Shown: positions 47,920 through 64,000, counted from the stretch's first letter. The stretch is 64,000 bases of DNA from Gemmatimonadota bacterium (GCA_039586495.1 JBDHKG010000020.1:1181-65180); one strand, 5' to 3'. Notes: generated by a model not told the origin, from the sequence alone. Numbers and translations are program-made.

Positions 47920-48531
47920 CTAGCCACCATACCTGCGGGCGATGATGGCGCCGAAGACGACATTGATCCCGCCAAAACCAGCCGCCATGAACGCGTTGCC
48001 CCATGCCGCTGGGGCGAGAAAAGCCCCGAGGCCCACCAGCATGAAGCAGACCCCCATGATCGGGACGGCTCTCACGGAGAACGCGCCGCCCGTCGTGACG
48101 CCCGTGCCATATAACAACAGCCAGGTGCCCGGCATGGCGTCGAAGAGGCGCGCCGAATAGAGGACCGCCGTGAGCACAGCGCCAGCGACCAGGGGAGGGC
48201 AGAGGCCGAAGACGAAGCGTGCGCCGGCGCCGCGCAGCAGCGGCGCCTTGACGGCTCTGGCTTTGAGAGCCATTGCGACGGCCCCGATGGCGATCGCCAG
48301 GGCAGCCTCGGCGAGCCAGGTGAGGAGCCAGGCGCTGGGGGTCATCTGGCGCGCGGCCAGTGCGGCGGCGGCGAACGCGGTCAGGCCGATGGCCAGGGTG
48401 CCCCACCCGGGGACGGCGGTGAAGGAGCTGGCGCGCGCCATGGTGTCGCGAATGAAGCGGAGGTCATCGAGGGCGCGGGACCGGGTGGGGGAGTGGCCGT
48501 TGCACTGGGGTTGAGAGCGTTCGTTGTTCAT
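47920..48531 (-). CDS. Integral membrane protein (hypothetical), probable partner of the wHTH regulator.
   Basis: 203 aa with five or six TM helices. No recognisable motifs. Confidence 0.5.
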
Positions 48532-48597
48532 GAGGGCTCAAAATAGGGGGTGGGGTTGGTGTTGTCAAGTACTTTGCATTGTAAAGGAGATAGGGGG

Positions 48598-48626
48598 TTG
48601 CGCACTCACGGTCTTCGGTTTATATT
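48598..48626 (+). promoter_or_regulatory. Candidate sigma70-type promoter (TTGCGC-17-TATATT) upstream of dnaE2.
   Basis: -35 TTGCGC at 48598..48603, a 17-nt spacer, then -10 TATATT at 48621..48626, in an AT-richer island. A palindrome AAGTACTT (48567..48574) and the CTTT-N7-AAAG dyad lie just upstream. Confidence 0.35.
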
Positions 48627-48638
48627 CGGTATCCCAGG

Positions 48639-48713
48639 GCGGAGGGGTGACCCACTCCCCCTACCTGCGAAGTGCCCCTCCGCTCTGGACCCACCTTGCG
48701 GTGGGCTTTTTTG
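48639..48713 (+). terminator. Leader or small-RNA-like structure: a 9-bp hairpin plus a canonical intrinsic terminator 39 nt upstream of the dnaE2 ATG.
   Basis: Hairpin 1 is gcggagggg (48639..48647) paired with cccctccgc (48675..48683). The terminator has stem cccacc (48690..48695), loop ttgc and stem ggtggg (48700..48705), then cttttttg (48706..48713). Confidence 0.55.
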
Positions 48714-48751
48714 TCGCCAGGGCTTACGGGCTTTATTCGGGACACTGGTTT

Positions 48752-51700
48752 ATGCCCTCATACGCCGAGCTCCACTGTCACTCCGCCTTCTCCCTCCTCG
48801 ACGGCGCCTCCACGCCGGAAGTCCTGGTTCGACGGGCGGTGGAGCTCGGCATCCGCGCCCTGGCGCTCACCGACCACGACGACCTGGGCGGCGCGGTGCG
48901 CTTCAGCCGGGCGGCCCGGGAGGCGGGATTGGAGGCGATCGTGGGGGCTGAGCTCACGATCGTGCCGCCGGAGGACGCTGCCGGTCCTCCCAACCATCTC
49001 ACGCTGCTGGCGCGGACCGCCGAGGGCTACGCGAACCTCTCGGAGCTGGTGACGCGGGGACGGTCGGGCACGGCGGGAACCCTCGCTTCATGTCGCGCGA
49101 CACGGGTTGGGATGTGTGACGGGCCACCGCGCTCCAAATGTCCGCTCGCGGCTCCCGCCGTGCCCTCCCTGTCGCGGAAAGGAGCCCGCCCCGAATCAAC
49201 TTCGAGAGTCCCCATCACGAACAGCTGGGCGCCGGACAGGGGGCGCCCACGGGTGACCTGGGAGGACCTGGCGGAGCTGGGATCCGGGCTCTTCGCCCTC
49301 ACGGGCTGTCCGCAAGGCGAGCTGGCCCGGCGGGTGCGGGCGGGCGATGGGAAGGGGACGCGGGAGCTGCTCGATTTCCTGCGGAGCGCCTTCCACGGCT
49401 ACTTGGCCGTGGAAGTCTGGGATCATGCGTTGCCGGAGGAACGGGCGCTGGCGGATCGCTTGCTGGAGCTGGCGGACCGCCAGGGGCTGCCGGCGGTGGC
49501 GACCAACGATGTGCACTATGCGCTGCCGTCGGGCCGAATCGTCCACGATCTGCTCACCTGCCTGCGCCATCAGGTGACGCTGGATGAGGCGGGCAGGCGG
49601 CTGCGCCCCAACGGCGAGTGGCATCTGAAGCCGTCCTCGGTGGTGTGGCGGCGCTGGCGCCAGCGGCCCGACGTGGTGGAGAACACCCACGGCGTCGCCG
49701 CCGAGTGTTCTTTCCGCTTGGCGGACCTCTCGCCGGCGATGCCGGGGTTCCAGGTGCCGCCCGGCGTGACGACGCAGGAGTATCTGGAGCGGTTGGTCTG
49801 GCGGGGTGCGCTGGAGCGCTACGGTGGGGCAGGGCAGGTGCGGAACGGCGATCCGATCTGCATTTCCGCTCCTGTGGAGGAGGGAGGAGTCGGGGAGATC
49901 GTCTCGCTCCACCGCTCGCAGCCTCCTGCGCCGCCCCCGGATCTCCAGCGCGGCCGCACGGTTGAGCGCGAGCCGCCGACCACCCCACCGGCCCTTGCAA
50001 AGGAAGTACTGCGGCCTGGCCGAGGCACGTCCAGGCACTTGAGCGAGGCGGGTCAAATCTGGAACAGTGACTCGAGTGGCGTGGTCGTTCCGACTAGGGA
50101 TGGGGCGCCGGATGGGTCGTCGAGCGTAACTCGCGAGCGGTGGAGCGAGATGATCCCACCGGCGCCCCGTCTAAACGGCGGCTCGGGTCTCAGGCAGCGA
50201 GTGCGTCGCCAGATCCGCCACGAACTCGAGGTGATCAAGCGCTTGGACCTGGCCGGGTACTTCCTCACCGTCTGGGACATCGTCCGCTTCGCCCGGCGCC
50301 AAGGGATCCTGTTGCAGGGACGCGGCTCGGCCGCCAACTCCTGCGTCTGCTACTGCCTGGGGATCACGGCGGTGGATCCCATCAAGTTCGAGCTGTTGTT
50401 CGAGCGCTTCCTCTCGGAGGAGCGGGGCGGCGCGCCCGACATCGATCTCGACATCGAGCACGAGCAGCGCGAGGAGGTGCTCCAGTACGTCTACCGCAAG
50501 TACGGCCGCGAGCGGGCGGCGATGGTCTGCGAGACGATCACCTATCGCGGCCGCTCCGCGGTGCGCGATGCCGCCCGCGTGCTCGGCTTTTCCACCGATG
50601 TGGCCGATCGACTGGCGGCGGAAGTGGAGCGCTGCGAAGCGGTAGAGGCGGCCGATGTGCTGGAGAACGGCGGACTGGCCGCCTGCGGGCTCGATCCGCG
50701 GGACCGTCGTGTCGCGGCGCTGGTCCACGTGGTGCGCGGGCTCGACCAACTACCGCGTCACCGCTCCATCCATGTAGGCGGCTTCGTCCTCACCGCGAGC
50801 CCACTCTCCCTGGTCGTCCCCATCGAGCCGGCGGCGATGCCGGAGCGCACCGTCATCCAGTGGGACAAGGACGACCTCGACTTCGTGGGCCTCATCAAGA
50901 TCGATCTGTTGGGCCTGGGGATGCTTACCTGCCTGGCGAAGGCGATCCGCTACATCCGCGAGACGCGCGGTGTGGCCATCGACCTGGCCCAGCTGCCGGC
51001 GGGCGACCCCGAGGTCTACCGGATGATCCAGCAGGCGGACACGGTAGGCGTCTTCCAGATCGAGAGCCGGGCGCAGATGAACTCGCTGCCGCGCTTGAAA
51101 CCCGGGGATTTCTACGATCTGGTCGTCCAGGTGGCGCTCATCCGGCCGGGCCCCATCCAGGGCGAGATGGTGCACCCCTATGTGCGGCGGCGGCGCGGCG
51201 AGGAGCCGGTGACGTATCTGCATCCGGATCTTGAGCCGATCCTCAAGCGGACGCTGGGCGTGCCGCTCTTCCAGGAGCAGGGGATGAAGGTCGCGGTGGC
51301 GATGGCGAACTTCACGCCGGGCCAGGCGGACGCATTGCGCCGGGCGATGGGGTTCAAGCGCTCGAGGGAGGCGATGGCGCTGATCGAGCCGGCGCTACGG
51401 GCGGGGATGACGGCGCGCGGGATCACCACAGACGTGCAGGATCAGATCGTCAAGCAGCTCACCGCCTTCGCCAACTACGGTTTTCCGGAGAGCCATGCGG
51501 CGTCATTCGCGCTCCTGGTCTACGCCTCGGCGTATCTCAAGCGCTACTACGCGCCCGAGTTCTACTGCGCGCTGCTCAACGCGCAACCGATGGGGTTCTA
51601 CGCGCCGGGGACGCTCGTTCATGATGCACGTCGCCACGGGGTCGAGATGCGGCCCGTCGATCTCGCGTACTCGAGCTGGGACTGCACGCTCGAACCCGGC

Positions 51701-52699
51701 ATCGAGGAAGACGGGGTGCGGCAGGGTCGTCTCGCTTCATGTCGCGCGGCACCGTGCCGATGTCGAAGGACCGGCGGGGGCGCTCCAAATGTCCGCTCAA
51801 CGACACCTGCCGCACCCCTGGACTCCGGGGACACGGCAGGAGATCCTCGAGCGGCCTTGTCACCACGAAAGGGAGGGCACGGCACCGACCCACGAGCGGA
51901 CATTTGGAGCGCCCCGGCCCGTCTCGTACACGTGCCCGAGTCGCGCGACATGAAGCGAGGGGTCGGTGCCGTGCCCGACCGGCCGGCTCTGCGGATCGGA
52001 CTGCGCTATGTGCGCGGGCTGGGCTCGAAGGCGGAGGAGAAGCTCAAGGCGGCATGGGAGGCCGGGGGACGTTTCCGGTCGGTGGAGGATGTGGTGCGGC
52101 GGTCGGGCCTCGGCCTCCCCTCCCTCAAGACGCTGGCGGAGGCCGGCGCCTTCCGGACGCTCTGGGGGCCGGGCCGGCGCTCCGCCCTCTGGGAGATGCT
52201 GGCGAAGCTCGCCCAGCGGCCACTGGCGCCGGTGGATTCGGCGCCTCATCCGTACCCGCACCCGAAACTGAAGGAGATGACCCGGGTCGAGTTCATCGCC
52301 GCCGATTACCTGACCACCGGACTCTGCACCCACGGGCATCCCATGGAGCACCTGCGGGCAACACTGCGCGCTCACGGTGTGGTCTCGGCCGAGGAGCTCA
52401 AGCGGGTCCGCAGCGGTCAGCGAGTGAAGGTGGCTGGCGTGGTGATCTGCCGGCAGCGGCCGGGCACCGCCAAAGGCGTGTGCTTCATCACTCTGGAGGA
52501 TGAGACCGGGTTCTCCAACTTCGTGGTCTACGCCGACCTGTTTCAGCGCTACCGCCGCACCATCGTCCGCTCACCGGTGCTCTTGATCGAGGGGATCGCC
52601 CAGCACGAGCAGGACGTGATCAACGTGCAGGCACGGCGGATCACCGCGATCGAGCCGACCGCGGGCGCCGACGTCATCGAGAGCCACGACTTTCACTGA
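48752..52699 (+). CDS. dnaE2: Error-prone DNA polymerase III alpha-subunit homolog (DnaE2/ImuC type), lengthened by three in-frame palindromic-element insertions.
   Basis: Starts MPSYAELHCHSAFSLLDGAS, the PHP domain. The polymerase core includes 'GFVLTASPL...IDLLGLGMLT...GVFQIESRAQM', and the OB-fold tail is 'VKVAGVVICRQRPGTAKGVCFITLEDETG'. The ORF-track start at 48524 is probably too long. Confidence 0.85.
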   Translation: MPSYAELHCHSAFSLLDGASTPEVLVRRAVELGIRALALTDHDDLGGAVRFSRAAREAGLEAIVGAELTIVPPEDAAGPPNHLTLLARTAEGYANLSELVTRGRSGTAGTLASCRATRVGMCDGPPRSKCPLAAPAVPSLSRKGARPESTSRVPITNSWAPDRGRPRVTWEDLAELGSGLFALTGCPQGELARRVRAGDGKGTRELLDFLRSAFHGYLAVEVWDHALPEERALADRLLELADRQGLPAVATNDVHYALPSGRIVHDLLTCLRHQVTLDEAGRRLRPNGEWHLKPSSVVWRRWRQRPDVVENTHGVAAECSFRLADLSPAMPGFQVPPGVTTQEYLERLVWRGALERYGGAGQVRNGDPICISAPVEEGGVGEIVSLHRSQPPAPPPDLQRGRTVEREPPTTPPALAKEVLRPGRGTSRHLSEAGQIWNSDSSGVVVPTRDGAPDGSSSVTRERWSEMIPPAPRLNGGSGLRQRVRRQIRHELEVIKRLDLAGYFLTVWDIVRFARRQGILLQGRGSAANSCVCYCLGITAVDPIKFELLFERFLSEERGGAPDIDLDIEHEQREEVLQYVYRKYGRERAAMVCETITYRGRSAVRDAARVLGFSTDVADRLAAEVERCEAVEAADVLENGGLAACGLDPRDRRVAALVHVVRGLDQLPRHRSIHVGGFVLTASPLSLVVPIEPAAMPERTVIQWDKDDLDFVGLIKIDLLGLGMLTCLAKAIRYIRETRGVAIDLAQLPAGDPEVYRMIQQADTVGVFQIESRAQMNSLPRLKPGDFYDLVVQVALIRPGPIQGEMVHPYVRRRRGEEPVTYLHPDLEPILKRTLGVPLFQEQGMKVAVAMANFTPGQADALRRAMGFKRSREAMALIEPALRAGMTARGITTDVQDQIVKQLTAFANYGFPESHAASFALLVYASAYLKRYYAPEFYCALLNAQPMGFYAPGTLVHDARRHGVEMRPVDLAYSSWDCTLEPGIEEDGVRQGRLASCRAAPCRCRRTGGGAPNVRSTTPAAPLDSGDTAGDPRAALSPRKGGHGTDPRADIWSAPARLVHVPESRDMKRGVGAVPDRPALRIGLRYVRGLGSKAEEKLKAAWEAGGRFRSVEDVVRRSGLGLPSLKTLAEAGAFRTLWGPGRRSALWEMLAKLAQRPLAPVDSAPHPYPHPKLKEMTRVEFIAADYLTTGLCTHGHPMEHLRATLRAHGVVSAEELKRVRSGQRVKVAGVVICRQRPGTAKGVCFITLEDETGFSNFVVYADLFQRYRRTIVRSPVLLIEGIAQHEQDVINVQARRITAIEPTAGADVIESHDFH
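49082..49180 (-). repeat. Truncated copy of palindromic MITE-like element family 1, inverted relative to the 51731 copy, inside dnaE2 and in-frame.
   Basis: The 18-bp terminus ctcgcttcatgtcgcgcg (49082..49099) is identical to 51731..51748. The inner box gcgctccaaatgtccgctc (49129..49147) is identical to the inner repeat of the full copy. ccgtgccctccc (49158..49169) is the reverse complement of gggagggcacgg in the full copy. The second half is missing. Confidence 0.7.
49897..50153 (+). mobile_element. Palindromic MITE-like element family 2 (~257 bp) inside dnaE2, in-frame.
   Basis: The terminal inverted repeats atcgtctcgctccaccgctcgc (49897..49918) and gcgagcggtggagcgagatgat (50132..50153) match at 21 of 22 positions. 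The element encodes a low-complexity ~90-aa Pro/Gly/Ser-rich insert ('...SLHRSQPPAPPPDLQRGRTVEREPPTTPPALAKE...') absent from typical DnaE2. Confidence 0.6.
51731..51959 (+). mobile_element. Full-length palindromic MITE-like element family 1 (229 bp, nested inverted repeats) inside dnaE2, in-frame.
   Basis: The outer TIRs are ctcgcttcatgtcgcgcg (51731..51748) and cgcgcgacatgaagcgag (51942..51959), an 18/18 match. The inner inverted repeats are ggggcgctccaaatgtccgctc (51778..51799) and gagcggacatttggagcgcccc (51894..51915), a 22/22 match. The central part has a further cctgccg...cggcagg dyad. The element encodes '...LASCRAAPCRCRRTGGGAPNVRSTTPAAPLDSGDTAGDPRAALSPRKGGHGTDPRADIWSAPARLVHVPESRDMKRG...' between the conserved DnaE2 segments 'SSWDCTLEPG' and 'PALRIGLRYVRGLG'. 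Confidence 0.75.
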
Positions 52700-52882: not shown

Positions 52883-53437
52883 ATGACCAATGGCCTGACC
52901 AAAACTGCCTTGTTGGGGTCCCTGCTCGGCATCATTGGCGTACCGGGCACCGCTCTCGGTACGCAGCTCCCGGGCGGCGCGGATTCCGTCAAGGTTCGGG
53001 CGCTGGCGACGCCCGCCAACCCTCAAGCGGGGGATCAGGTGTCCGTTGCGGTCGCCCTGGAGCACGCCGCGGGGTTCCATTCCTGGCCGCATGAACCGGT
53101 CGTTCCGCCGGAGCTCCGGGGGGTGATGCCCATCGCCACGACGATCGAGGTGTTGTCGCTCCCGGAAGGGGCCGTCGTCGAGGAGATCCAGTGGCCAGCG
53201 CCCGTCCCGGTGATCGTGCGCTACACCCGGGGACCGGTGCTTCTGCTCGCCTATACTGACACGGCCGTCGCGCAGCTGCGCCTCAGGCTGGAGTCGGACC
53301 AGCCAGCCGAGGGAACGAGCGTCGCGCTCAGAGTGCGCTATCAGGCCTGCGACGAACGGGTATGCTATCCACCGAAGACGGTGGGCCTTGTAGTGCCTCT
53401 GTGGCACGGCCCGGCCCGCGACGATAGCCGGAGCTAA
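52883..53437 (+). CDS. Periplasmic DsbD N-terminal (alpha) domain-like protein, standalone.
   Basis: Signal peptide. The C-terminal motif 'YQACDERVCYPPKT' matches the DsbD-alpha active-site pattern (QGCADAGFCYPP). Confidence 0.65.
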   Translation: MTNGLTKTALLGSLLGIIGVPGTALGTQLPGGADSVKVRALATPANPQAGDQVSVAVALEHAAGFHSWPHEPVVPPELRGVMPIATTIEVLSLPEGAVVEEIQWPAPVPVIVRYTRGPVLLLAYTDTAVAQLRLRLESDQPAEGTSVALRVRYQACDERVCYPPKTVGLVVPLWHGPARDDSRS

Positions 53438-54279: not shown

Positions 54280-54563
54280 GAGTCATCCTCCCATATGGTG
54301 GGTGACGTGTCGTGAGGAGGGCGGCTTGCTTGTGCGACTTGAGGGGCAAGAGGTGTGCCCGGACGAGACCGGGAACGCCAGCGAGCTAAGTCGATTCGCG
54401 GCAACGAATTCCAGCCGGGGACGGACCGGAGGCGGCTCGCCCGGGATTCAGCTTCCTGACGGTCTCAGTCAGGAGTCTGAAGTCGGACCCGGGAGCGAGG
54501 GCAGGAGCGAGCTGCCAGGTGGCCACTGTCGCGCCGCGAGGCTTCCGTGCATCTTGGAGCCTG

Positions 54564-55007
54564 ATGAGAGCTCGAACGCTGGCGCTTGCCTGCGCCTTGG
54601 TGCTGCTGCTCACGGGGTGCGAAGATGAGGAGGCCAGCGGCATTGTCGTCGGGCCGCTGGCCGGGCCGCGCGTCGCCGAGTCGGTCCTCGCGCTCGCCGT
54701 GGTCGACGGGGTACCGGTAGGGATCACGACCATCTTCGAGCAGGGCGAGGTCGTGAACCTGTGGGTCCACTGGGAGGCACTTCAACCGCCTCACGTGGCG
54801 GAGGCGGTCTGGTTCGACGCGTTCGCTGACGACGTGGATGCGACGACACTGGAGATCAGGGGCCGCGCAGCAGAGCAGGTTACGGTCTTCAGCCTCCAGC
54901 TCACCAGCTTTTCGCAGACGGGCCGCTGGGGTGTCGAGCTTTACCTGGACGGGGAGTTCCAGCGGAGCCACGCGTTCCACGTAGTGGAGGTTGTGCCCGG
55001 CGAGTAG
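54564..55007 (+). CDS. Lipoprotein (hypothetical).
   Basis: Internal ATG at 54564 gives MRARTLALACALVLLLTGC, a lipobox. The ORF-track start is a GTG at 54519. Confidence 0.45.
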   Translation: MRARTLALACALVLLLTGCEDEEASGIVVGPLAGPRVAESVLALAVVDGVPVGITTIFEQGEVVNLWVHWEALQPPHVAEAVWFDAFADDVDATTLEIRGRAAEQVTVFSLQLTSFSQTGRWGVELYLDGEFQRSHAFHVVEVVPGE

Positions 55008-55201: not shown

Positions 55202-56464
55202 ATGGGTATCCGAGAGCGCTACGCGCGTGAAGCGTTGATCTTCCTGCTTTGGTGCATCGCGCCATCCGTGGGATACGCCCAGGCCCAGGAAGGTACGTGT
55301 GTGAGCTGTCATTCCGGGCTGAGCGGTAACCTGGCCGAGCCTGTAGAGGAGTATGCGGCAAGCGTGCACGCAGCCAGGGGCTTCGGGTGCGTCTCTTGCC
55401 ACGGCGGCGACGCTCAGGAATTCAGTATGGCGGCGATGGACCCGAGCAGGGGGTATGTCGGCGTCCCGGAGCGCCAGCAGATTCCGACCCTGTGTGGCCG
55501 CTGCCACTCCGACGCGCAGTTCATGAGGCAGTACAATCCAGCGCTGCGTGTGGACCAGGTGGCCGAATACCTCACTTCGGTGCACGGCCAGCAGTTGATG
55601 CGGTCGAATGATGAGAGGGTCGCGACCTGCGTGAGCTGTCACCCTGCGCACGCGATCAAGCCGCCCTCGGACCCGACCTCCAGCGTCAACACGCTGAACG
55701 TGGCTCAGCTGTGCGGATCGTGCCACAGCGACCCGGACTACATGCAGCCGTACATGATCCCGACGGACCAGGAAGAGAGGTATCGGCAGAGCATCCACTG
55801 GCAGATGCTTTCTGTGGAGGGCGATCTCTCGGCGCCGACCTGCAATGACTGTCACGGCAACCACGGCGCGGCCCCGCCCGGGATCTCCTGGGTAGGTAAC
55901 GTCTGCGGTCAATGCCACACGGTGATGTCGGGTCTGTTCCAGGAGAGCCAGCACGCGCGTGTGCTCGCGATGCTGGGCTCTCCAGGCTGCGCCACCTGCC
56001 ACAGGAACCACGACATCCACGAGGCCGGGGACGAGTTGCTCGGTCTAGGGGAAGGTGCTGCCTGCGGGATGTGCCACGCGGAAGTGGATGCGGGCGGCGC
56101 CGTCGCGTCCGAGATGCGAAGCCTGATCGATTCGCTGCACAGGGAATTCGCGAAGGCCGACTCGGTTCTCGCGCGGGCCGAGCACGCGGGGATGGAGGTC
56201 AGCGAGGCTCAATTCGATCTTAACGCTGCCACGACCGCCTTGATCAGCGCGAGGGCGGCGGTGCACGGGTTCTCTGTTGACGCGGTGCGGCAAGAGGTCG
56301 CGGCCGGACTGGAGGTGACATCGCGGGCCTACGAGCGTGGCCAGAAGGCACTCGCCGATCTCCAATTCCGGCGCGTGGGTCTGGCGGTCTCGGTAACTAT
56401 CATTCTGCTGCTGATCGTCGGGCTCGTGCTCAAGATTCGACAGATCGAGCGAAAGACAGCGTAG
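55202..56464 (+). CDS. Nonaheme c-type cytochrome with a C-terminal membrane anchor; first gene of the bc-type complex operon.
   Basis: Nine CxxCH motifs (CVSCH, CVSCH, CGRCH, CVSCH, CGSCH, CNDCH, CGQCH, CATCH, CGMCH). C-terminal TM helix 'VGLAVSVTIILLLIVGLVL'. Confidence 0.85.
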   Translation: MGIRERYAREALIFLLWCIAPSVGYAQAQEGTCVSCHSGLSGNLAEPVEEYAASVHAARGFGCVSCHGGDAQEFSMAAMDPSRGYVGVPERQQIPTLCGRCHSDAQFMRQYNPALRVDQVAEYLTSVHGQQLMRSNDERVATCVSCHPAHAIKPPSDPTSSVNTLNVAQLCGSCHSDPDYMQPYMIPTDQEERYRQSIHWQMLSVEGDLSAPTCNDCHGNHGAAPPGISWVGNVCGQCHTVMSGLFQESQHARVLAMLGSPGCATCHRNHDIHEAGDELLGLGEGAACGMCHAEVDAGGAVASEMRSLIDSLHREFAKADSVLARAEHAGMEVSEAQFDLNAATTALISARAAVHGFSVDAVRQEVAAGLEVTSRAYERGQKALADLQFRRVGLAVSVTIILLLIVGLVLKIRQIERKTA

Positions 56465-56502
56465 CTGGTTTGGTGCGGGGCCAGCTTCCAGGGAGGAACG
56501 CG

Positions 56503-56958
56503 ATGGCTGAAAAGGTGGGAGCTGCCGGCCAGAGCCGGCGAGGCTTCGTCAACTGGATTCTAGGTACGGGCGTGGGAGGACTGCTGCTCGCCGTCCTCTA
56601 TCCGCTCAGCCGTTACCTGATTCCACCGGAGGTGGAGGAATCGACGGCCGGGACGGTCACGCTCGCGATCAAGCCGGAGGAGATTGCCGCGAACACCGGT
56701 CACATCTTCAAGTTCGGAAGCCAACCGGGGATTCTGATCCGGACACCGTCAGGTGAGCTGCGCGCGTTCTCGGCGACGTGCACACACCTGGCCTGCATCG
56801 TCCAGTACCGGAGTGATCTCGGGCGCATCTGGTGCGCCTGCCATAACGGACATTTCGACCTCAGCGGCCGGAACATCGAGGGGCCACCCCCGCGGCCGCT
56901 TGAGAGCTTTGCGGTGAACGTACGTGGGGAGCAGATCGTGGTGAGCAGGGACGTCTGA
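56503..56958 (+). CDS. Rieske [2Fe-2S] subunit of the cytochrome bc-type complex, with a Tat signal.
   Basis: Twin-arginine '[11 protein letters not shown]'. Box I 'CTHLAC' and box II 'CACH' are present. GGGAGG lies 6 nt upstream of the ATG at 56503. Confidence 0.85.
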
Positions 56959-56960
56959 CG

Positions 56961-58058
56961 ATGGGAACCCTCAAGCAGAAGTTCAGCGGTCTCTGGGGCT
57001 GGCTCGACGAGCGATTGGGGCTCGCCGATGTCGAGACGCTCGCCAAGAAAAAGGAGGTGCCGATCCACCGGCACACGGTCTGGTACTACCTGGGCGGGAT
57101 GACGCTCTTCCTCTTCCTGATACAGGTCGCCACTGGGATCTTGCTTCTCTTCTACTATCGCCCGAGCGCCGAGCACGCTTACGAGTCGGTGCAGTTCCTG
57201 ATGGCGGAGGTCGAGTTCGGTTGGCTGGTTCGCTCGATTCATTCGTGGGCGGCTAATCTGATGATCTTCACGGCCTTCCTGCACCTTTTCAGCGTCCTGC
57301 TCCTGAAAGCGTACCGCAGGCCCCGCGAGGTCACCTGGCTGTCTGGCGTGCTCTTGCTGGGGCTTGCCATGGGCTTCGGCTTCACCGGGTACCTGCTGCC
57401 CTGGAACGAGCTGGCGTACTTCGCGACGAGGGTCGGCACCCAGATCGTCGACGCGGTTCCGCTTGTCGGCCGGTTCGCCGGCCGAGTGCTCCGCGGCGGC
57501 GACGATGTCACGGGCGCGACCCTCACGCGCTTCTACGCCATCCACGTGGCTGTCCTGCCAATGGTGACGACTTTCCTGCTGGTCCTGCATCTGTTCATGG
57601 TCCAGAAACACGGGATGAGCGTGCCTCCGGATATGGAGCGCCAGGGCGGTGCGAAGGGCGCCATGCCGTTCTTCCCCCACTTCCTGCTCCGCGATCTGGT
57701 GGGCTGGCTTTCGGCGCTGGCGATCCTCGCTGCGCTAGCCGCCTATTTCCCGGCGGAGCTCGGCGAGAAGGCGGACCCCTTCGCGTCCGCGCCGGCAGGC
57801 ATCAAGCCGGAGTGGTACTTCATGTTCATGTTCCAGACGCTGAAGTACCTGCCGGCTCATATCCTCTGGATGGAGGGGGAGGCTGTCGGCATTGTCGCTT
57901 TCATGCTGGCCGGTCTGCTGCTGCTCATCATCCCCTTCCTGGACCGTCGCTCGGCGCGTGGCGAGCCGAGCCGGCTGTTCACGTGGATCGGCATCGTAAT
58001 TATCGTCTACATCATCATCCTGACCTATCTCGGCTACACGGCGAATCCTGCGGCCTAG
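56961..58058 (+). CDS. Cytochrome b subunit (fused b6 and subunit-IV type).
   Basis: Heme-ligating His in helices B and D ('[19 protein letters not shown]', '[23 protein letters not shown]'), a PEWY-region analog, and 8 TM helices. Confidence 0.88.
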
Positions 58059-58126
58059 CAGCGGTGAGGACTCGAAGCCGCCGGCCCGCTTGTCTGCTGT
58101 TGTACCAGGCAGCGCGACAGGGTCGG

Positions 58127-60112
58127 CTATCCCCCGCTCAGCGCAGGGATCTCGTGGCAGAGGACACAGTCCGCCGGAGCGTTGTGCTCGACCTTGTCGA
58201 CGTGACACACGGTACAGACCTGCCGGCTCCACTCAGTGATGTTGGCGACGCGCTCTCCGTGGCAGGGGGCGCAGCCACTGTGTGCGGCAGGCGGATGGAT
58301 CTGCATGACTCCGCCGCGGTGGCATGATAGGCAGGAGTTGTCTGGCTGGTGATGGCGATCGTGGCAACTCTCACAGCGTACGCCGCTGGCGCTCATCGCG
58401 GGCGCCTCATGGCACTGCGAGCAGCCCAAGCCCGCCTCGAGGTGCGTCTGGTGTGGGAAATCGCCGGTCTCGGTCGCCATCGCTGTCTGAGGGGCGCCGC
58501 CCGGGCCCGCGTGACACGCGGCACAGTTGAGCGGGTCGATCACGCGATGATGGCAGTTGTCGCAGCTTGATCTTCCGCGCAGGGTGATCCCGCCGTGCTC
58601 TTCCAAAGGCGTGTGGCACTCGGAACAGCCCAGTGCGGCTCGCTGAACGTGGGGGCCGTGGCTGAACGCTTGGCCCGCAAAGGCGCCCTCTTGCCCACCG
58701 ATACCGAGGTGGCACTGCAGGCAGGTGTTCTCGGCTAGCGCTGGCCCGAGGTCTAGGTCAGGGACGGAGTAGGTCAGTCGGCCGACCTCGACGGCCTGCC
58801 TGGCGAGTCCAAGGGAGGCGCGCAGCAGGTCGTCGGCGTAGCCGATGTTGTGGGCGCCCTTCCCGCGTTCCACGAGACCCACGTTCTCCTCGGCGAGCCT
58901 GAGAAGGCTATCGGCTCTGGCCCGGGTGCGCAGCGGCGCGCTGCCCAGTGTCTGCCGGGCCGCCCTGATGACGGAAGCGACCTCGCTCCGGCGTCGCTCG
59001 ATCTCCCTTTGCCAGTTGGGGAGAATGTTCGCGTAGCGGATGCCGTGGCAGGACATGCAGGTCGCTTCGCCAGCGCGCCGGACCTCCTCGTGGCCGGGAA
59101 CCTCCGCTGGCAGGCCGTGGCAGCTCTGGCAGAGCACGCGGGCCAGATACATGGAGCTGGGCCTGTTATCGGTGCCGTGCCCGCCCATGCCCGCATACAT
59201 GAGCCTCTGCTCGTTGTGGGCGCGCTGATGGCATGCCTGACAGTCGAGCTCGAACGTGGCGGCGAGGGACAGCACCCGATGCTGCATGGGCGTGTGGCAC
59301 TGCGTGCACTCGACCTTGTTCTCGGAGATGTGGAGTCGGTGAACGAGCGTGGTGTTCTCGAACTGACCCAGCCGTTCGGGCTCGTTATGGCAAATGAAGC
59401 AGCGATCCCGGTCCGCGGCACCCGAGCCGCTGATCACGTTCTCGTGGCACCCGGTACAGGAGATGAGGTTCCTCACGTACTCTCGGTGGTCGACCACGAA
59501 GCCTGCGGGCGAGGTGAAGCGTGGCGGTGAGGCGTGGCAGCCGGTGCAACCCGCGATGGGTTGACCCGCGGGCCGATCCTTGAAGTGACACAGGTAGCAG
59601 GTCTCTGCCGTGACCGTCACATGGGCGCCCTGCACGATCTGGGAGTGGCAGCTCGTGCAGCGCAGATTCTTGCCGCGCCGGAGCTCGCCCAGGTGGTGGG
59701 TGTGATCGAAGCGGACGCCCTCAAAATTCACCTCCCCTTCAAGCGCCCGCTCCGAGTGACAACCCGAGCGCAGACAGGCTGCATCCTCGATCTCCGCCCA
59801 CGGTCTGATCCCGTAGGTGCCGGTGATGTACTTGACGACCTGGTTGGCTGCCTGGAGCTTCCCCATCGCCTCCGCCCTGATCCCGGGCGCGTAGTGACAG
59901 TCGATGCATTTCACGCTGTTGTGAGACGAGCTTGCCCAGGAATCGTAATAGGGCCGCATGATGTGGCAGTTGGTGCAGAAGCTGGGCTGACCGCTGTACT
60001 CGATGAACCCTACTGTCCCGATCGCAGCCAGTATCACCAGCAGGATGCCCACCTGGATGGCGATCTTCAGAGGGTCGGAAAAGCGGTCCAGAAAACCCAT
60101 GAGAGGCGCCAT
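58127..60112 (-). CDS. Large multiheme c-type cytochrome (~21 CxxCH plus one CX4CH) with a NapC/NirT-like N-terminal TM anchor; last gene of the minus-strand bc-type operon.
   Basis: 661 aa. N-terminal TM 'IAIQVGILLVILAAIGTVGF' then 'CTNCH...CIDCH'. CxxCH motifs recur throughout, and 'CLRSGCH' is a CX4CH variant. Confidence 0.85.
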   Translation of the reverse strand: MAPLMGFLDRFSDPLKIAIQVGILLVILAAIGTVGFIEYSGQPSFCTNCHIMRPYYDSWASSSHNSVKCIDCHYAPGIRAEAMGKLQAANQVVKYITGTYGIRPWAEIEDAACLRSGCHSERALEGEVNFEGVRFDHTHHLGELRRGKNLRCTSCHSQIVQGAHVTVTAETCYLCHFKDRPAGQPIAGCTGCHASPPRFTSPAGFVVDHREYVRNLISCTGCHENVISGSGAADRDRCFICHNEPERLGQFENTTLVHRLHISENKVECTQCHTPMQHRVLSLAATFELDCQACHQRAHNEQRLMYAGMGGHGTDNRPSSMYLARVLCQSCHGLPAEVPGHEEVRRAGEATCMSCHGIRYANILPNWQREIERRRSEVASVIRAARQTLGSAPLRTRARADSLLRLAEENVGLVERGKGAHNIGYADDLLRASLGLARQAVEVGRLTYSVPDLDLGPALAENTCLQCHLGIGGQEGAFAGQAFSHGPHVQRAALGCSECHTPLEEHGGITLRGRSSCDNCHHRVIDPLNCAACHAGPGGAPQTAMATETGDFPHQTHLEAGLGCSQCHEAPAMSASGVRCESCHDRHHQPDNSCLSCHRGGVMQIHPPAAHSGCAPCHGERVANITEWSRQVCTVCHVDKVEHNAPADCVLCHEIPALSGG

Positions 60113-60118
60113 CCTCTG

Positions 60119-61381
60119 TCAGCTTTCTCCTTTCAACAGTACCCGCAGTTTGAACCAGGAGAGGATGATGGCGGAAAGCGCCAGGAACCAGATGAGAATG
60201 AGGATAAGCCTGTGTTCCCAGCGCTGCTCGGCGCTCACCTCCGCGGCTGCCCGCACATCCCGCGAGATCGAGGCCACCTGCCGACTCAGATCCTCGAGCG
60301 TTTCGAGTCCTAGGCTGTGTTGAGTCTGAGCCATCTGCATGTACGAGGTCAGCGCACTCTGGTAGCGAAACTCTACGTCCGAGACCTGCTGGCCGGCACG
60401 GGTGAGTTCTAGGATCGCCTCTTCGGCACTTCGCAGATCCTCGCTGGCACGTGTCACCTGTTCTTGGATCTCTACCCCGGCAAGAGCGGCGGGTTCTTCG
60501 GTGTCGTGGCAGTTCAGGCAGGTGGCCGCGACCCTTTCAGGATGCACTCGTTCGGTGCCGTGGTTGGAGTGGCAGGCGGTGCAGCCGGGCAGGACCCCGG
60601 CGCGGGCCGCGGCACCATGCGGTCCCGCGTCGAACGCGCGGCGAACCAGGACGTGGCATTGACCGCACACGTTCCCGATTTGGCTGACTGCCGGTGGTAG
60701 CGCCGCATGGGAACCGTGGCAGCCTACGCAGGTCGGTGCCGCGAAATTCTCTTTCTCGTAGAGCGCTACACCGTGGGTGCTTGCCCGGTGCGTCGTGACC
60801 TGGTCCGTGGTCAGGCCATACTTCGCCATCAACGCCGCCTGCTCGTGGCAGCGTGCGCAGGTGGCTGCGATGTTGGTGGGGTAGACGTTGCTGCGTGCGT
60901 CGTTGGGCGGCAGGATCATGTGCGCGTCGTGGCAGTCGGTGCAGGTAGGCGCATCGAAGTCCCGTTGCTCCAGCAATAGCCTGCCGTGCCGACTGGTGCG
61001 GTACTCGGCGAGCTGGCCCGCCGGCAAGCCGTACTGGCGCATCCGATCGGGGTCGGAGTGGCACGACGCGCACAGCTGCACCGTACGAATCTTGTCGGGC
61101 GACCCGATGTAGTTTGCGCCGGTGTGGGCGGTGGCGCGCTCGAACGCCCTCGGGTCCCCACCGTGGCAGTCGTGACAGCGGATGCCACGCTCGGAGTGCG
61201 CGCCGAGCAGGAACGCTCTCCGCTTGTCGGTGTGGCAGACAACACAGCTGTACTCAGGGTCGATGTCGAATTCGCGCTGCTGAGAAGGCACCGGCGAAGC
61301 CGTCGCTGTCTCAGCGTCGACGGACGCCGCCGCCAGAGCCAGCAGGGTGCTGGAAGTCAGTATCCACGGGCCCGCTCTCAC
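60119..61381 (-). CDS. Nonaheme c-type cytochrome, paralog of 55202..56464, with a C-terminal TM anchor.
   Basis: Nine CxxCH motifs. Segments collinear with the plus-strand paralog include 'CASCHSDPDRMRQYGL' ~ 'CGRCHSDAQFMRQYNP' and 'IGNVCGQCH' ~ 'VGNVCGQCH'. Confidence 0.85.
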   Translation of the reverse strand: MRAGPWILTSSTLLALAAASVDAETATASPVPSQQREFDIDPEYSCVVCHTDKRRAFLLGAHSERGIRCHDCHGGDPRAFERATAHTGANYIGSPDKIRTVQLCASCHSDPDRMRQYGLPAGQLAEYRTSRHGRLLLEQRDFDAPTCTDCHDAHMILPPNDARSNVYPTNIAATCARCHEQAALMAKYGLTTDQVTTHRASTHGVALYEKENFAAPTCVGCHGSHAALPPAVSQIGNVCGQCHVLVRRAFDAGPHGAAARAGVLPGCTACHSNHGTERVHPERVAATCLNCHDTEEPAALAGVEIQEQVTRASEDLRSAEEAILELTRAGQQVSDVEFRYQSALTSYMQMAQTQHSLGLETLEDLSRQVASISRDVRAAAEVSAEQRWEHRLILILIWFLALSAIILSWFKLRVLLKGES

Positions 61382-62640
61382 TGCTGGTCCTCCCTGTCGC
61401 CAGGGTTCTGGGAGCGTGAGTCACGCTCCGGTGTCTCTGCTTCGAGTTCTCGCGGAACGAACCGCTCGACCACGCCTTCAGATCGTAGGTGCGTGCCGGG
61501 CGGCAGCGACTCGAGCTGACGACCGGCCACCCAAGCGACGAGGAAGCCGGCGAAGAACACCAACCCGAGCGCCAGCGCGAGGGGCCTCTTACGCAGCCGC
61601 CGCTCAGGTCGGCGATCGAACAGGGGAAGCAACGCCAGGCTGATCCCCAACAATGTGAAGAGCGAGAAGCCCCACACACCGAGGTAGCGTATCAGAGCCA
61701 ACGCGACGTCCACGACGATCCATGAGGAAACGAGTTCCTCCGGGAGCTGGAACGGGTCGGCGGGGTCCCCCACCGCTCGCGGGTAGAGGGCTGCCAGGCT
61801 GAACGTTACGGCCAGGACCAGGATCCCGACGATGAACGAGCGCAAGAGATGATTCGGGAAAAACCGCGTCCCTTCGCCGGCGCTCGCTGTCGCTTCGGGA
61901 GGCGGGGCGATCCCGTGCCTTCGCACCAAATTGAAGTGGAACAGGAGCAGCGCGAAGGCTACCCAGGGAAGCAGGATCACGTGGAGGGCGAAGAAGCGGC
62001 TTAGGGTCGCGCCCGACACGATCACGTCGCCCTGCAGAACCGAAGCTGCGAGACTGAGCAGCGGCGCGCGCGACATGGTGCCCAGCACCTCCGTGACCGT
62101 CCAGTAAGCCCACTGATCCCAGGCCAGCAAGTAGCCGGTGGTACCGAAAGCCAGTACAACCAGCAGCAGGAGCACGCCTACCACCCAGTTCGTCTCGCGC
62201 GGCGGCTTGTAGGTCGCGTGAAAGAAGACGCGGGCCATATGGGCCAGTATCGCGAGCACGATGAGGTTTGCCGACCAGACGTGGAGGTTGCGGACCAGCC
62301 AGCCCATCGGAACCTCGGTAACGATGTACTGGATACTCGGGTAGGCTTCTTGCACCGAAGGCCGGTAGTAGAAGGACAGCAGCACACCGGTAACCACCAG
62401 GACGATGAAAAGCAGGTACGTGATGCCGCCGAGCGCATGGCGCCAGCCGACGTGACCCGCTAAGCGGTAGCCGAGCGCTTTGCGCAGTGCCTGATCGATT
62501 GGCAGGCTTCGGTCGATGCGGCCGTACAGCAGCCCCAGGAACCGCGCTACCCCGAGCAGCCCGGGATCGGTACTGGCCTTGAGGTCGGCCCAGAACTGGG
62601 CCAACCATCTGGCTCTTGGCTTCCGTTCTGAATCGTTCAC
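61378..62640 (-). CDS. Cytochrome b subunit, paralog of 56961..58058.
   Basis: '...SIQYIVTEVPMGWLVRNLHVWSANLIVLAILAHMARVFF...' is collinear with the plus-strand cytochrome b. 4-nt overlaps with both neighbouring genes. Confidence 0.85.
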   Translation of the reverse strand: MNDSERKPRARWLAQFWADLKASTDPGLLGVARFLGLLYGRIDRSLPIDQALRKALGYRLAGHVGWRHALGGITYLLFIVLVVTGVLLSFYYRPSVQEAYPSIQYIVTEVPMGWLVRNLHVWSANLIVLAILAHMARVFFHATYKPPRETNWVVGVLLLLVVLAFGTTGYLLAWDQWAYWTVTEVLGTMSRAPLLSLAASVLQGDVIVSGATLSRFFALHVILLPWVAFALLLFHFNLVRRHGIAPPPEATASAGEGTRFFPNHLLRSFIVGILVLAVTFSLAALYPRAVGDPADPFQLPEELVSSWIVVDVALALIRYLGVWGFSLFTLLGISLALLPLFDRRPERRLRKRPLALALGLVFFAGFLVAWVAGRQLESLPPGTHLRSEGVVERFVPRELEAETPERDSRSQNPGDREDQQ

Positions 62641-63098
62641 CTTTCTCCTTCCGAAACGTAGACGACACCGTCCCTGACAGACACGGAGTAGCGTCGAAGC
62701 GCCTGCATGGACAGGCCTGCAACTACATCTCCTCGCAGGTCATAGACCGTGTACCGGCACGGCGAATAGACTCGCGAGGACTCGGGGTCCCAGCGCAGGA
62801 TGCAGCCGTCGAACGGCGAGACCCCCTGCAGCGCGAAGTAGCGGAGAGAATCGGGCCGGATGACAAGAATGGTCTTCTCACCCCAGTTCCGCACCCGGCT
62901 GGACCCGACAGGGAAATCGGCCTCCCGGGCCACGCGAATCACCGGCTGAAGCTCAGGGATCTCGAGATGCTCGGAGGGGGCGACATAGAACGTGGTCGCT
63001 ATCGCCAGCAGCACGATCATCACGAGGATGACGCCGCCCAGGAGAAGTTCGGTGAAGCCGAATCGCGAAGTCCTCAGCTGTTTCTCCATTGCTTGCAT
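62637..63098 (-). CDS. Rieske-fold paralog lacking all four Fe-S ligands (pseudo-Rieske) but keeping the disulfide Cys pair. It has a degenerate Tat motif.
   Basis: Aligns with 56503..56958: 'SRFGFTELLLG' ~ '[11 protein letters not shown]' (RR to RF). Box I 'CTHLAC' becomes 'SPFDGC' and box II 'CACH' becomes 'SPCR'. Confidence 0.55.
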   Translation of the reverse strand: MQAMEKQLRTSRFGFTELLLGGVILVMIVLLAIATTFYVAPSEHLEIPELQPVIRVAREADFPVGSSRVRNWGEKTILVIRPDSLRYFALQGVSPFDGCILRWDPESSRVYSPCRYTVYDLRGDVVAGLSMQALRRYSVSVRDGVVYVSEGER

Positions 63099-63263
63099 AC
63101 GGTTGACGCGAAGCCGCGCAAACGGGTTCTCCGCAGGATCACCCGCAGCATCGGGAAGCGAGCTGAAACTACCACGCTTCCCCGAAATTGCGCCACCGGT
63201 TGAGGCGGCAAGCCGGTGAGCGTCAAGTCGCTTATCGTTCTGCCGACTTGCCCGGAGTCAGAC

Positions 63264-64000
63264 TTCCAGCCCGAGCCGCGTTTTCATCTGCTCAACCAGC
63301 CATTCCGCCTCAGATTTGTCTCGTATCGAGCTTCCCGCGTGCAGCCGCACCCCGTCGCGACGCACGAGCCGGATGTCATAGTACACCGTGTTGCCGGAGT
63401 GCATCCCGATCTTCAGCACGATGTCTTCGATGTCGTGAACTGGGATCTTGCGGGTGGGACCGAGGCCCAGGAGCCCACGGCAGATCTCGATGCCCCCCGA
63501 CGTGAGGGTGACGCGGGTGGTGCCGAGCCAGACTCTGATCAGCGCGTAGGCTAGCAGCAGGTCGAACGCGCCGAAGACGACAGGGAAGACGATCGGCGCG
63601 CCGAGTCGCGGGAGCGCGCGCGGGCGCGAAGAAGATCTCGGTGCGCCGCAGGCCGGAGGTGACGTAGATGCGGGAGTCGGGTGGTTGACGGTATTCGGCA
63701 GTGTATTCGGCTAGCGGCTCTTCCTCCTCGGGCGGCAAGGGGATCTCACTTGCCGGCGTCCGGAACACCGGGACCTCGAAGCCCGCGTGGTAGTCGACGC
63801 CCGGCACGGAGGCGCGAGCCTCGAGGCGCCAGAGGATCTCGCTACTGGGGTCACTCGCGTCGGTTTCCCTCGCGTTGAGGGGCAGCCGGAACGAGACGGG
63901 GATCGCTGTCGCGGTTCGCCCGACGTGCCCCGTCTCGGTGACCTGGCGTTCCTCCTGCCAGAGAATTCGCTCTCTCGTCGAGCTCTCCCCGCCGGAGCGG
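63264..64000 (-). CDS. Hypothetical membrane-anchored protein, partial: the N-terminus is beyond the window end. A frameshift is possible near 63600.
   Basis: The minus-strand frame from the window end reads '...ILWRLEARASVPGVDYHAGFEVPVFRTPASEIPLPPEEEEPLAEYTAEYRQPPDSRIYVTSGLRRTEIFFAPARA'. A +1 frame continues with 'LPRLGAPIVFPVVFGAFDLLLAYALIRVWLG...HDIEDIVLKIGMHSGNTVYYDIRLVRRDGVRLHAGSSIRDKSEAEWLVEQMKTRLGLEV*', ending near 63264. The switch sits at a cgcgcccgcgcgcgctccc run. Confidence 0.3.

Follow-up and report, generated by a model that had tools for sequence, protein, structure and literature searches.

Two paralogous Rieske/cytochrome b modules with multiheme cytochromes c in a Gemmatimonadota genome, one of them predicted to be free of the Rieske cluster and of the PEWY motif

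Introduction

Why would a bacterium encode two Rieske/cytochrome b modules back to back, each with its own multiheme c-type cytochromes, and can both of them oxidise quinol in the same way? The question is raised by positions 55202-63098 of a 64,000-nucleotide stretch of DNA from a Gemmatimonadota bacterium (GCA_039586495.1 JBDHKG010000020.1:1181-65180; this whole stretch is referred to as the window), which an earlier note had described as two convergent operons encoding paralogous cytochrome bc-type complexes. Operon A (genes A1-A3, plus strand) encodes a nonaheme cytochrome c, a Rieske protein and a cytochrome b, and operon B (genes B1-B4, minus strand) a Rieske-fold protein, a cytochrome b', a second nonaheme cytochrome and a 22-heme cytochrome. 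Rieske/cytochrome b complexes are generally regarded as requiring both the 2Fe-2S cluster and the PEWY-containing quinol-oxidising (Qo) site. The predicted proteins of operon A carry both features, and those of operon B carry neither. We propose, with a probability of roughly 0.6, that the locus holds two ancient paralogous modules, of which A is intact and B would be a non-bifurcating conduit between menaquinone and periplasmic or extracellular partners.

Results

B1 has a Rieske fold without cluster ligands

B1 contains two cysteines and one histidine in total. In an alignment with A2, to which it is homologous (22% identity, E = 6e-10), all four cluster ligands are substituted (C to S, H to F, C to S and H to R), and the disulfide-forming pair of cysteines remains, spaced by 15 residues as in A2. 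The protein retains a transmembrane (TM) anchor and the full Rieske fold; its only Pfam match is PF13806 (Rieske_2, 29 bits), and its nearest NCBIfam model is PetC. As encoded, B1 cannot bind a Rieske 2Fe-2S cluster.

A search of 5.8 billion proteins returned a B1 family of 113 clusters (47-94% identity to B1), the named ones all from Gemmatimonadota. The ligand columns read S (100), variable, S (113) and variable, with all four ligands replaced in every cluster, and the disulfide cysteines are present in 113/114 and 114/114. Since the ligands are missing across the whole family, their loss is a family trait and no local defect. The signal for twin-arginine translocation (Tat) has changed as well: B1 reads SRF where A2 has an SRRGF motif, and any RR pair was found in 32/104 B1 proteins versus 19/20 of the A2 family. 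This decay is consistent with a protein for which cytoplasmic cofactor insertion is no longer required. Annotation of B1 as "Rieske (2Fe-2S) protein" or "nitrite reductase/ring-hydroxylating ferredoxin subunit" overstates what the sequence can do, as does the annotation given to B2.

B2 is a cytochrome b' that has lost PEWY and kept its heme ligands

B2 belongs to the bc/b6 family (PF00033, E = 8e-45; also PF00032), matches a cytochrome b6 in the PDB (E = 2e-51) and is homologous to A3 (38% identity, E = 2e-58); against Ni_hydr_CYTB it scores only 21.8 bits, below the cut-off of 30.1. All four heme histidines persist in B2 itself, in 75/75 orthologs and in L081, a deeply divergent lineage described below. 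At the Qo position, SSWI stands instead of PEWY; the family consensus there is s-t-W-v, PEWY is lost in all 75 orthologs, and a family-specific W-x3-D-V motif lies downstream of the lost site.

We searched 1.84 billion representative proteins exhaustively with B2 using HMMER, and compared the best 150. The B2 clade amounts to a handful of representatives in this library, all without PEWY, after which the score falls from 360 to 230 bits. Nearly all other full-length neighbours among these 150 keep a P[E/D/A/P]W[Y/F]-type motif, a few having the variants PEWP or PEWN, and those full-length members that lack every PxW[YF]-type motif make up the B2 clade. Neighbour-joining bootstraps recovered the B2 clade in 60/60 replicates, the A3 clade likewise in 60/60, and the two as sister groups in 0/60. 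A heme ci was rejected for these proteins, as the cysteine it requires is in none of the cytochromes b compared. The same library includes an odd cytochrome b lineage (P0128, P0137, P0198 and P0199) with the second ligand histidine changed to arginine (HRHH) and PPWY or PLWF in the place of PEWY.

B3 and B4 provide 31 c-type hemes

B3 has a signal peptide and a single C-terminal TM helix, as does its homolog A1 (31% identity, E = 9e-65), and nine CXXCH motifs are found in 63/63 B3 orthologs. In an AlphaFold2 model (mean predicted local distance difference test score, pLDDT, 86), the heme domain is followed by three long helices ending in the TM helix; B3 gave no significant sequence match in the PDB, and the model had no informative structural neighbour. 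The nonaheme domain of A1 and B3 is collinear (~30%) with the c domain of CbcL-like fusion proteins encoded by relatives.

B4 is built from an N-terminal TM helix (residues 19-37), a quinol-dehydrogenase head of the NrfH/NapC type, c7/c3-like modules and a pentaheme region, and 50/55 orthologs have 21 CXXCH motifs. Residues 482-607 resemble the c7-like multiheme chains 8k9e_A, 6f0k_A and 6lod_A, which we take to be the ActA pentaheme subunit of alternative complex III. The N-terminus matches PF03264 (NapC/NirT) and TIGR03153 (NrfH, E = 1.5e-14), and the head aligns with Desulfovibrio NrfH (2j7a_C, E = 1e-8) over hemes 1-2 and, more weakly, hemes 3-4; the extra CX4CH heme sits between NrfH hemes 2 and 3. 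Lys82 and Asp89 are residues of the NrfH quinol site. Compared with 2j7a_C, B4 keeps Lys82 and the methionine of CXXCHxM (CHIM), and has Gln in the position of Asp89. The CXXCHxM motif, whose methionine ligates heme 1 at the quinol site of NrfH (10.1101/2025.04.14.648717), is present in 54/55 B4 orthologs.

Complex B is in sum without the first electron acceptor (2Fe-2S) and without the ef-loop motif, and keeps both b hemes together with the 31 c hemes. These results show that complex B, as predicted from its genes, cannot run a canonical Q cycle.

Operon A encodes a complete Rieske/cytochrome b complex

A3 matches PF00033 (E = 1e-53) and PF00032 (E = 6e-13), and both its four heme histidines (HHHH) and its KPEWYF motif are invariant in 22/22 orthologs. 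Orthologs in other Gemmatimonadota share 76-83% identity with A3, as expected of a core respiratory enzyme. A2 matches PF00355 (Rieske, E = 2e-12), the PetC TM anchor and the NCBIfam model for b6f PetC (E = 3e-19), and its Rieske boxes, CTHLAC and CACH, are intact in cluster ligands and disulfide cysteines. Box II reads CACHNGHF, without the Ser and Tyr that raise the midpoint potential; since hydrogen bonds from these two residues raise Rieske potentials (PMC12954380), A2 is probably a low-potential, menaquinol-type Rieske protein.

A1 matches Cytochrome_C7, c3_2 and Paired_CXXCH in Pfam, and 15/15 orthologs have nine CXXCH motifs. Its signal peptide and C-terminal hydrophobic segment (residues 392-410) give it the topology of cytochrome c1 or f, of which A1 is the predicted equivalent and, as such, the putative electron exit of complex A. 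Operon A has all the sequence features of a working quinol-oxidising complex, namely a Qo site, a Rieske protein, two b hemes and a nonaheme exit. Taken alone it is a further member of an already-known kind, in which a Rieske/cytochrome b complex has a multiheme cytochrome as its c subunit, comparable to those of Geobacter (Ext) and of anammox bacteria.

Operon B is conserved in order and under purifying selection

We scanned one genome per GTDB species with an 8-sequence B1 alignment and extracted 20-kb loci. A B1 homolog was found in 88 species, and 80 loci were kept, of which 77 are titled Gemmatimonadota or sub-lineages thereof and three "uncultured bacterium". All 80 are records of metagenome-assembled genomes (MAGs), with no isolate carrying operon B among them; the MAG titles name sediments, soils and other redox-stratified sites. 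The B1 proteins of these relatives diverge down to 49% identity to that of the window, and the order B1-B2-B3-B4 is kept in nearly every locus long enough to show it. Against a 94%-identical relative, the ratio of nonsynonymous to synonymous substitution rates (dN/dS) was 0.15 for B1 and 0.17 for B2. Operon B is shown by these coding-sequence comparisons to be under purifying selection.

Operon A lies within 10 kb of operon B in 23/80 loci, and in the other 57/80 none was found within the flank covered. Where the two are neighbours, A occurs in four arrangements relative to B (convergent downstream, tandem downstream, tandem upstream and divergent upstream); the neighbourhood is kept while the arrangement varies.

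In eight relatives (L002, L007, L010-L014 and L016), ~3 kb of DNA is found at the position of the A3/B4 spacer. In L002 this insert (L002:15115-18089, between B4 and A3) encodes an 8-heme cytochrome, a Tat-type 4Fe-4S NrfC-like protein and an NrfD-like membrane protein (c8-NrfC-NrfD), a set similar in composition to Geobacter Cbc4 (CbcSTU). In the window lineage these genes have been lost or moved, and what is left is a spacer of 68 bp. Further genes accompany operon B elsewhere: a ~537-aa lipoprotein-like multiheme cytochrome upstream of B1 in 38 loci and a separate b561-like protein in 22 loci, neither of which is in the window, and, in Gemmatimonadaceae-type relatives, CbcL-like proteins encoded directly downstream of B4, in which a multiheme c domain is fused to an FdnI-type diheme b domain (L021:15181-17220, 679 aa, and L021:17377-20277, 966 aa; similar in L022, L023, L049 and others).

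The predicted lipoprotein encoded upstream of A1 in the window has no Pfam or NCBIfam match. Its orthologs (54-61% identity) are divergently oriented, directly upstream of B1, in L002, L004, L006, L007, L008, L011 and L013, and since it accompanies the cluster in the nearest relatives, it is a possible accessory component. A conserved 508-aa protein is encoded near the B operon at L042:11103-12629, and its family occurs in 17 loci; no Pfam, NCBIfam or PDB match confirmed the suspicion that it is an outer-membrane barrel, which could complete a porin-cytochrome conduit.

Operon B probably descends from an ancient architecture with a working Qo site

Three operons in other bacteria encode the closest cytochromes b in which PEWY or PPWY is retained. 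In L082 (Ca. Wallbacteria), the Rieske boxes are CPHLGC/CPCH, the Qo motif is PEWY, the c-type cytochrome has 11 hemes and the NrfH-like polyheme cytochrome 15. L083, from a metagenome, combines CTHLSC/CPCH and PEWY with a 9-heme cytochrome and a polyheme protein with 17 CXXCH plus CLRSGCH, 42% identical to B4. L086 (52% GC) has CTHLKC/CPCH, PPWY in a cytochrome b split into b6 and subunit IV, a 9-heme cytochrome and, again, a polyheme protein with 17 CXXCH plus CLRSGCH and 42% identity to B4. The gene order in L083 and L086 is Rieske, cytochrome b, 9-heme cytochrome and NrfH-like polyheme; L082 has the same four genes with the polyheme first. The island of L086 also includes c8-NrfC-NrfD. At L086:13315-15468 a 7-heme cytochrome carries a type A sorting domain of the type IX secretion system (T9SS; TIGR04183, E = 9e-12), which implies a predicted cell-surface multiheme cytochrome in a bacterium of the FCB group.

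An N-terminal extension and a short ef-F loop are common to B2 and the cytochromes b of L083 and L086 but not to A3. Similarly, B3 is 35% identical to the nonaheme cytochrome of L083 and 31% to A1, and B3, B4 and B1 are each closer to the operons of other phyla than to their A counterparts. The deep lineage L081, whose cytochrome b is 46% identical to B2, already has a pseudo-Rieske and a PEWY-less cytochrome b. With the altered state present in L081 and the Qo site intact in L082, L083 and L086, the B-type architecture is old and normally comes with a working Qo site. These comparisons identify operon B as a probable ancient paralog that lost its bifurcating Qo site, cluster and PEWY having probably been lost together in the Gemmatimonadota lineage. 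The nonaheme cytochrome of L081 (L081:10621-12315) has a C-terminal extension past the TM helix and a Pfam TerB hit, which probably falls within this extension.

A recent duplication of A as the origin of B was rejected on the bootstrap result (never sister, 0/60) and on the synteny evidence. This agrees with the earlier note, which had argued from gene order that the locus is not a simple inverted duplication. The note had also called the nonaheme cytochromes and the cytochromes b clear paralogs, and the alignments bear this out for both pairs (E = 9e-65 and 2e-58) as well as for the Rieske-fold pair (E = 6e-10). The refuting case that it named, cytochromes b that are fragments or pseudogenes, can be dismissed (heme histidines in 75/75 B2 and 22/22 A3 orthologs; dN/dS of 0.17 for B2). 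Its description of both complexes as bc-type holds for A; complex B is not bc-type functionally, as it has no cluster ligands, mostly no Tat signal and no PEWY. The content of B1 (two Cys and one His) and the loss of PEWY in B2 were not part of that note.

Gene layout and genomic context

The two convergent groups consist of seven intact open reading frames (ORFs), none of them fragmented, which lie where the note had placed them (Table 1). Its heme counts of 9, 9 and 22 are also correct, the last being composed of 21 CXXCH and one CLRSGCH. The tight 4-nt overlaps that it reported occur at the B1/B2 and B2/B3 junctions only, the remaining junctions being gaps of 2-6 nt. Start sites are partly ambiguous: on contig L084, the gene caller gives 151 aa for A2, 150 for B1, 408 for B2 and 657 for B4.

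Table 1 Features of the locus and adjacent genes in window coordinates
Feature	Position	Strand	Product length	Description
A1	55202-56464	+	420 aa	Nonaheme c-type cytochrome, 9 CXXCH
A2	56470-56958	+	162 aa from TTG start (151 aa if ATG 56503)	Tat-exported Rieske 2Fe-2S subunit (predicted)
A3	56961-58058	+	365 aa	Cytochrome b, fused b6 + subunit IV type
Spacer	58059-58126	none		68 bp between convergent stop codons of A3 and B4
B4	58127-60112	-	661 aa	22-heme cytochrome: 21 CXXCH + one CX4CH (CLRSGCH)
B3	60119-61381	-	420 aa	Nonaheme c-type cytochrome, 9 CXXCH; paralog of A1
B2	61378-62640	-	420 aa	Cytochrome b'; Qo PEWY lost (SSWI)
B1	62637-63098	-	153 aa (150 aa if ATG 63089)	Membrane-anchored Rieske-fold protein without cluster ligands, pseudo-Rieske
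Predicted lipoprotein	54519-55007	+	162 aa	Lipobox LLTGC; upstream of A1 in the window
DsbD_N gene (DsbD-alpha)	52883-53437			PF11412 match

L084 is a contig of JGI metagenome 3300009034 with 99.97% identity to the window over 12.2 kb. The Gemmatimonadota MAG CP070823.1 (L001) is 94% identical over 2.5 kb; its "chromosome" record has runs of 100 N every ~3.3 kb in the stretch examined and represents concatenated short contigs, in which synteny beyond ~3 kb is unreliable.

The GC content of the window is 64-70%. Its other genes are of housekeeping type (tricorn protease, TPR, Sortilin/BNR, TonB receptor, MacB-type transporter, penicillin amidase and DnaE2), and no further multiheme cytochrome, NrfCD or CbcL-like gene was found anywhere in the 64 kb. 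Scanning 54-64 kb for promoters and terminators yielded no signal above shuffled expectation, including no terminator in the A3/B4 spacer, and the regions upstream of A1 and B1 have no k-mer of 8 or longer in common and no palindrome. The earlier note had connected the locus to a standalone DsbD-alpha gene; the gene is real, but its link to the operons is rejected because the synteny is not conserved, the gene being adjacent only in this population and in 0/80 related loci. The broader idea of the note, specialised periplasmic or extracellular electron transfer, fits the islands of relatives with their CbcL-like fusions, NrfCD genes and, in L086, a T9SS-sorted cytochrome.

Two neighbouring genes have irregular reading frames. 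Upstream of B1 (63240-64000, minus strand; L084:6762-8006), a gene for a membrane protein of ~414 aa without a Pfam match shows a frame change near 63.55 kb. One frame gives Arg/Pro-rich text and a stop, and the other a protein-like C-terminus closing in EAEWLVEQMKTRLGLEV and a stop codon, 160 nt before B1. The frame change is common to the window and L084, and is either genuine (a frameshift or pseudogene) or an error present in both assemblies. The DnaE2-like ORF (48524-52699, plus strand) is unusually long (1391 aa), with low-complexity Arg/Pro/Gly-rich insertions, an odd N-terminus and a TTG start; the L084 gene caller gives only a 249-aa C-terminal piece of it.

Discussion

How might complex B work without a cluster and without PEWY? 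By the conduit reading, electrons would pass between menaquinone and the c-type hemes along either of two routes, or both. In one, the two b hemes would form a transmembrane wire between a quinone site on the negative (N) side of the membrane and the nonaheme cytochrome, as in CbcL/FdnI-type proteins; in the other, quinol would be oxidised on the positive (P) side at the NrfH-type head of B4. B1 would be kept as a structural adaptor in either case. As far as the sequence goes, electrons could flow through B in either direction. The best available precedent, by analogy, for exchange between b hemes and a nonaheme cytochrome without an iron-sulfur cluster would be the CbcL-like fusions, which join a c domain homologous to A1 and B3 to a b-type domain, with no iron-sulfur protein in the polypeptide. 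We consider it tentative, and somewhat short of an even chance, that B records the evolutionary conversion of a Q-cycle enzyme into a cluster-free, non-bifurcating conduit, in which the Rieske fold is structural and hemes bL and bH exchange electrons directly with the nonaheme/22-heme chain.

Several points weigh against the conduit proposal. The wire route would require heme bL to sit within tunnelling distance of a c heme. B4 is only a putative physical partner of B1-B3. With Gln in the position of NrfH Asp89, B4 may or may not oxidise quinol. B2 may still have a modified quinone site on the P side, because it retains the cd-loop motif PWDQWAYWT of that side at high conservation and has gained a conserved Asp (in W-x3-D-V) near the lost PEWY. 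Finally, even the intact operons of ancestral type pair a bc module with an NrfH-like polyheme cytochrome, a puzzling doubling of quinone-interacting modules.

Two alternatives concern the direction of flow and the role of B4. Electrons might flow inward, from a low-potential external donor through B4 and B3 to bL, bH and menaquinone at the N side, generating membrane potential as one half of an FdnI-like redox loop. The architecture (b hemes retained, P-side quinol-oxidation machinery removed, long multiheme chains) would suit this, and the relatives come, to judge from their record titles, from sediments, soils and other redox-stratified habitats; nothing in the sequence sets such a direction, however, and no donor-oxidising enzyme is encoded nearby in the window, which leaves inward flow unlikely. 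B4 might instead act by itself as an NrfH/CymA-like quinol dehydrogenase feeding its own 22-heme chain, with B1-B3 as scaffold or docking proteins and no flux through the b hemes. NapC/NirT-family proteins are indeed self-sufficient quinol dehydrogenases (10.1101/2025.04.14.648717), and the head of B4 matches NrfH down to Lys82 and the Met-ligated heme-1 motif of 54/55 orthologs. Yet neither the b-heme ligands nor the nine heme motifs of B3 would stay invariant in a pure scaffold, and Asp89 of NrfH is replaced by Gln, so we regard B4 acting alone as unlikely.

That complex B still runs a Q cycle by borrowing a Rieske head in trans, for example from A2, would account for the proximity of A (within 10 kb in 23/80 loci in several orientations, and directly abutting B in the window) and for the conservation of the B2 cd-loop region, which normally faces the Rieske head. 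B1, however, retains its own TM anchor and full Rieske fold and so presumably fills the Rieske position; the loss of PEWY in every B2 argues for a change in Qo chemistry itself; and 57/80 loci have no A operon within the flank, although it could lie elsewhere in those genomes. A borrowed head is improbable on this evidence. Hardest to sustain is the proposition that operon B is a decaying, functionless remnant of a duplicated bc complex and that only A matters. Both defining catalytic features, the Rieske cluster and PEWY, are gone, and the window lineage has also shed the c8-NrfC-NrfD genes seen in relatives, but dN/dS is 0.15 for B1 and 0.17 for B2, all ORFs are intact, the heme histidines (75/75), the 9 and 21 + 1 heme motifs and the disulfide cysteines are kept across at least 88 species, and the deeply divergent L081 lineage keeps the same state. 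Conservation of this kind has already largely refuted the remnant explanation, to which we give hardly any credence.

If the conduit proposal is true, Gemmatimonadota would have a hitherto unrecognised link between the menaquinone pool and redox partners in the periplasm or outside the cell. A lineage found in at least 88 species has dropped the cluster and PEWY and kept the b hemes and the Rieske fold under purifying selection, and relatives in which the gene order is the same and the Qo site intact offer a natural comparison with the cluster-free form, through which the role of the cytochrome b scaffold without bifurcation could be addressed. The locus further points to a conserved respiratory island of multiheme proteins in a phylum that is common in soil and sediment. 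What is new in operon B, as read from its genes, is the pairing of a conserved cofactor-less pseudo-Rieske with a PEWY-less cytochrome b. We found no literature description of a cluster-less Rieske protein or a PEWY-less cytochrome b in a bc-type operon, or of Gemmatimonadota multiheme bc complexes, an earlier mention in Dibrova et al. 2013 (on bc-complex evolution) not being excluded.

Among known systems, the cytochrome b6f/menaquinol-type complexes (PetC-PetB-PetD, the "green clade") differ from both modules described here, in which b6 and subunit IV are fused, the heme-ci cysteine is absent and a nonaheme cytochrome takes the place of cytochrome f or c1; B additionally lacks the Rieske cluster and PEWY. 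The ExtMNOPQ(S) cluster of Geobacter sulfurreducens, with the Rieske protein ExtO, cytochrome b ExtP, membrane protein ExtQ, 10-heme ExtN and 12-heme ExtM (PMC5877670), is alike in encoding a Rieske/cytochrome b core together with large multiheme cytochromes. Of the NCBIfam ExtP/ExtQ models (NF040969/NF040970), A3 matches ExtP at 221.8 and B2 at 209.5 bits, both below the equivalog cut-off of 290. In Ext, moreover, the genes are split (ExtP + ExtQ), ExtO is described as a true Rieske iron-sulfur protein, a polyheme protein with an NrfH head is lacking, and the cluster includes a porin and a rhodanese, both absent here.

Anammox bacteria similarly have several differentiated Rieske/b complexes per organism. 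Kuste4569-4574 and Kustd1480-1485 are b6f-like cores whose cytochrome f is substituted by a c-type cytochrome with six or eight hemes, and in the published model the long helices of the multiheme subunit wrap around the complex (PMC12954380); the long C-terminal helices in the B3 model may be comparable. The anammox Rieske proteins differ in that they bind 2Fe-2S through canonical ligands, at ~+300 mV (PMC12954380), and NAD(P) oxidoreductase subunits occur there, with none encoded here.

With NrfH, NapC and CymA, B4 has in common the N-terminal TM helix, four NrfH-equivalent heme motifs, CXXCHxM for heme 1 and Lys82. It departs from NrfH in having 22 hemes against 4, an inserted CX4CH heme and Gln for Asp89, and in being encoded with a cytochrome b module, not with a terminal reductase. 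CbcL of Geobacter is an inner-membrane quinone:cytochrome c oxidoreductase (10.1101/2025.04.14.648717), and the CbcL type consists of a multiheme c domain fused to a diheme b domain of the FdnI/HydC type. B is not a member of this type, as B2 belongs to PF00033 and not to FdnI/Ni_hydr_CYTB, and B has separate subunits including one of Rieske fold. We propose CbcL as a functional analogy for B, in which electrons would likewise be exchanged directly between b and c hemes.

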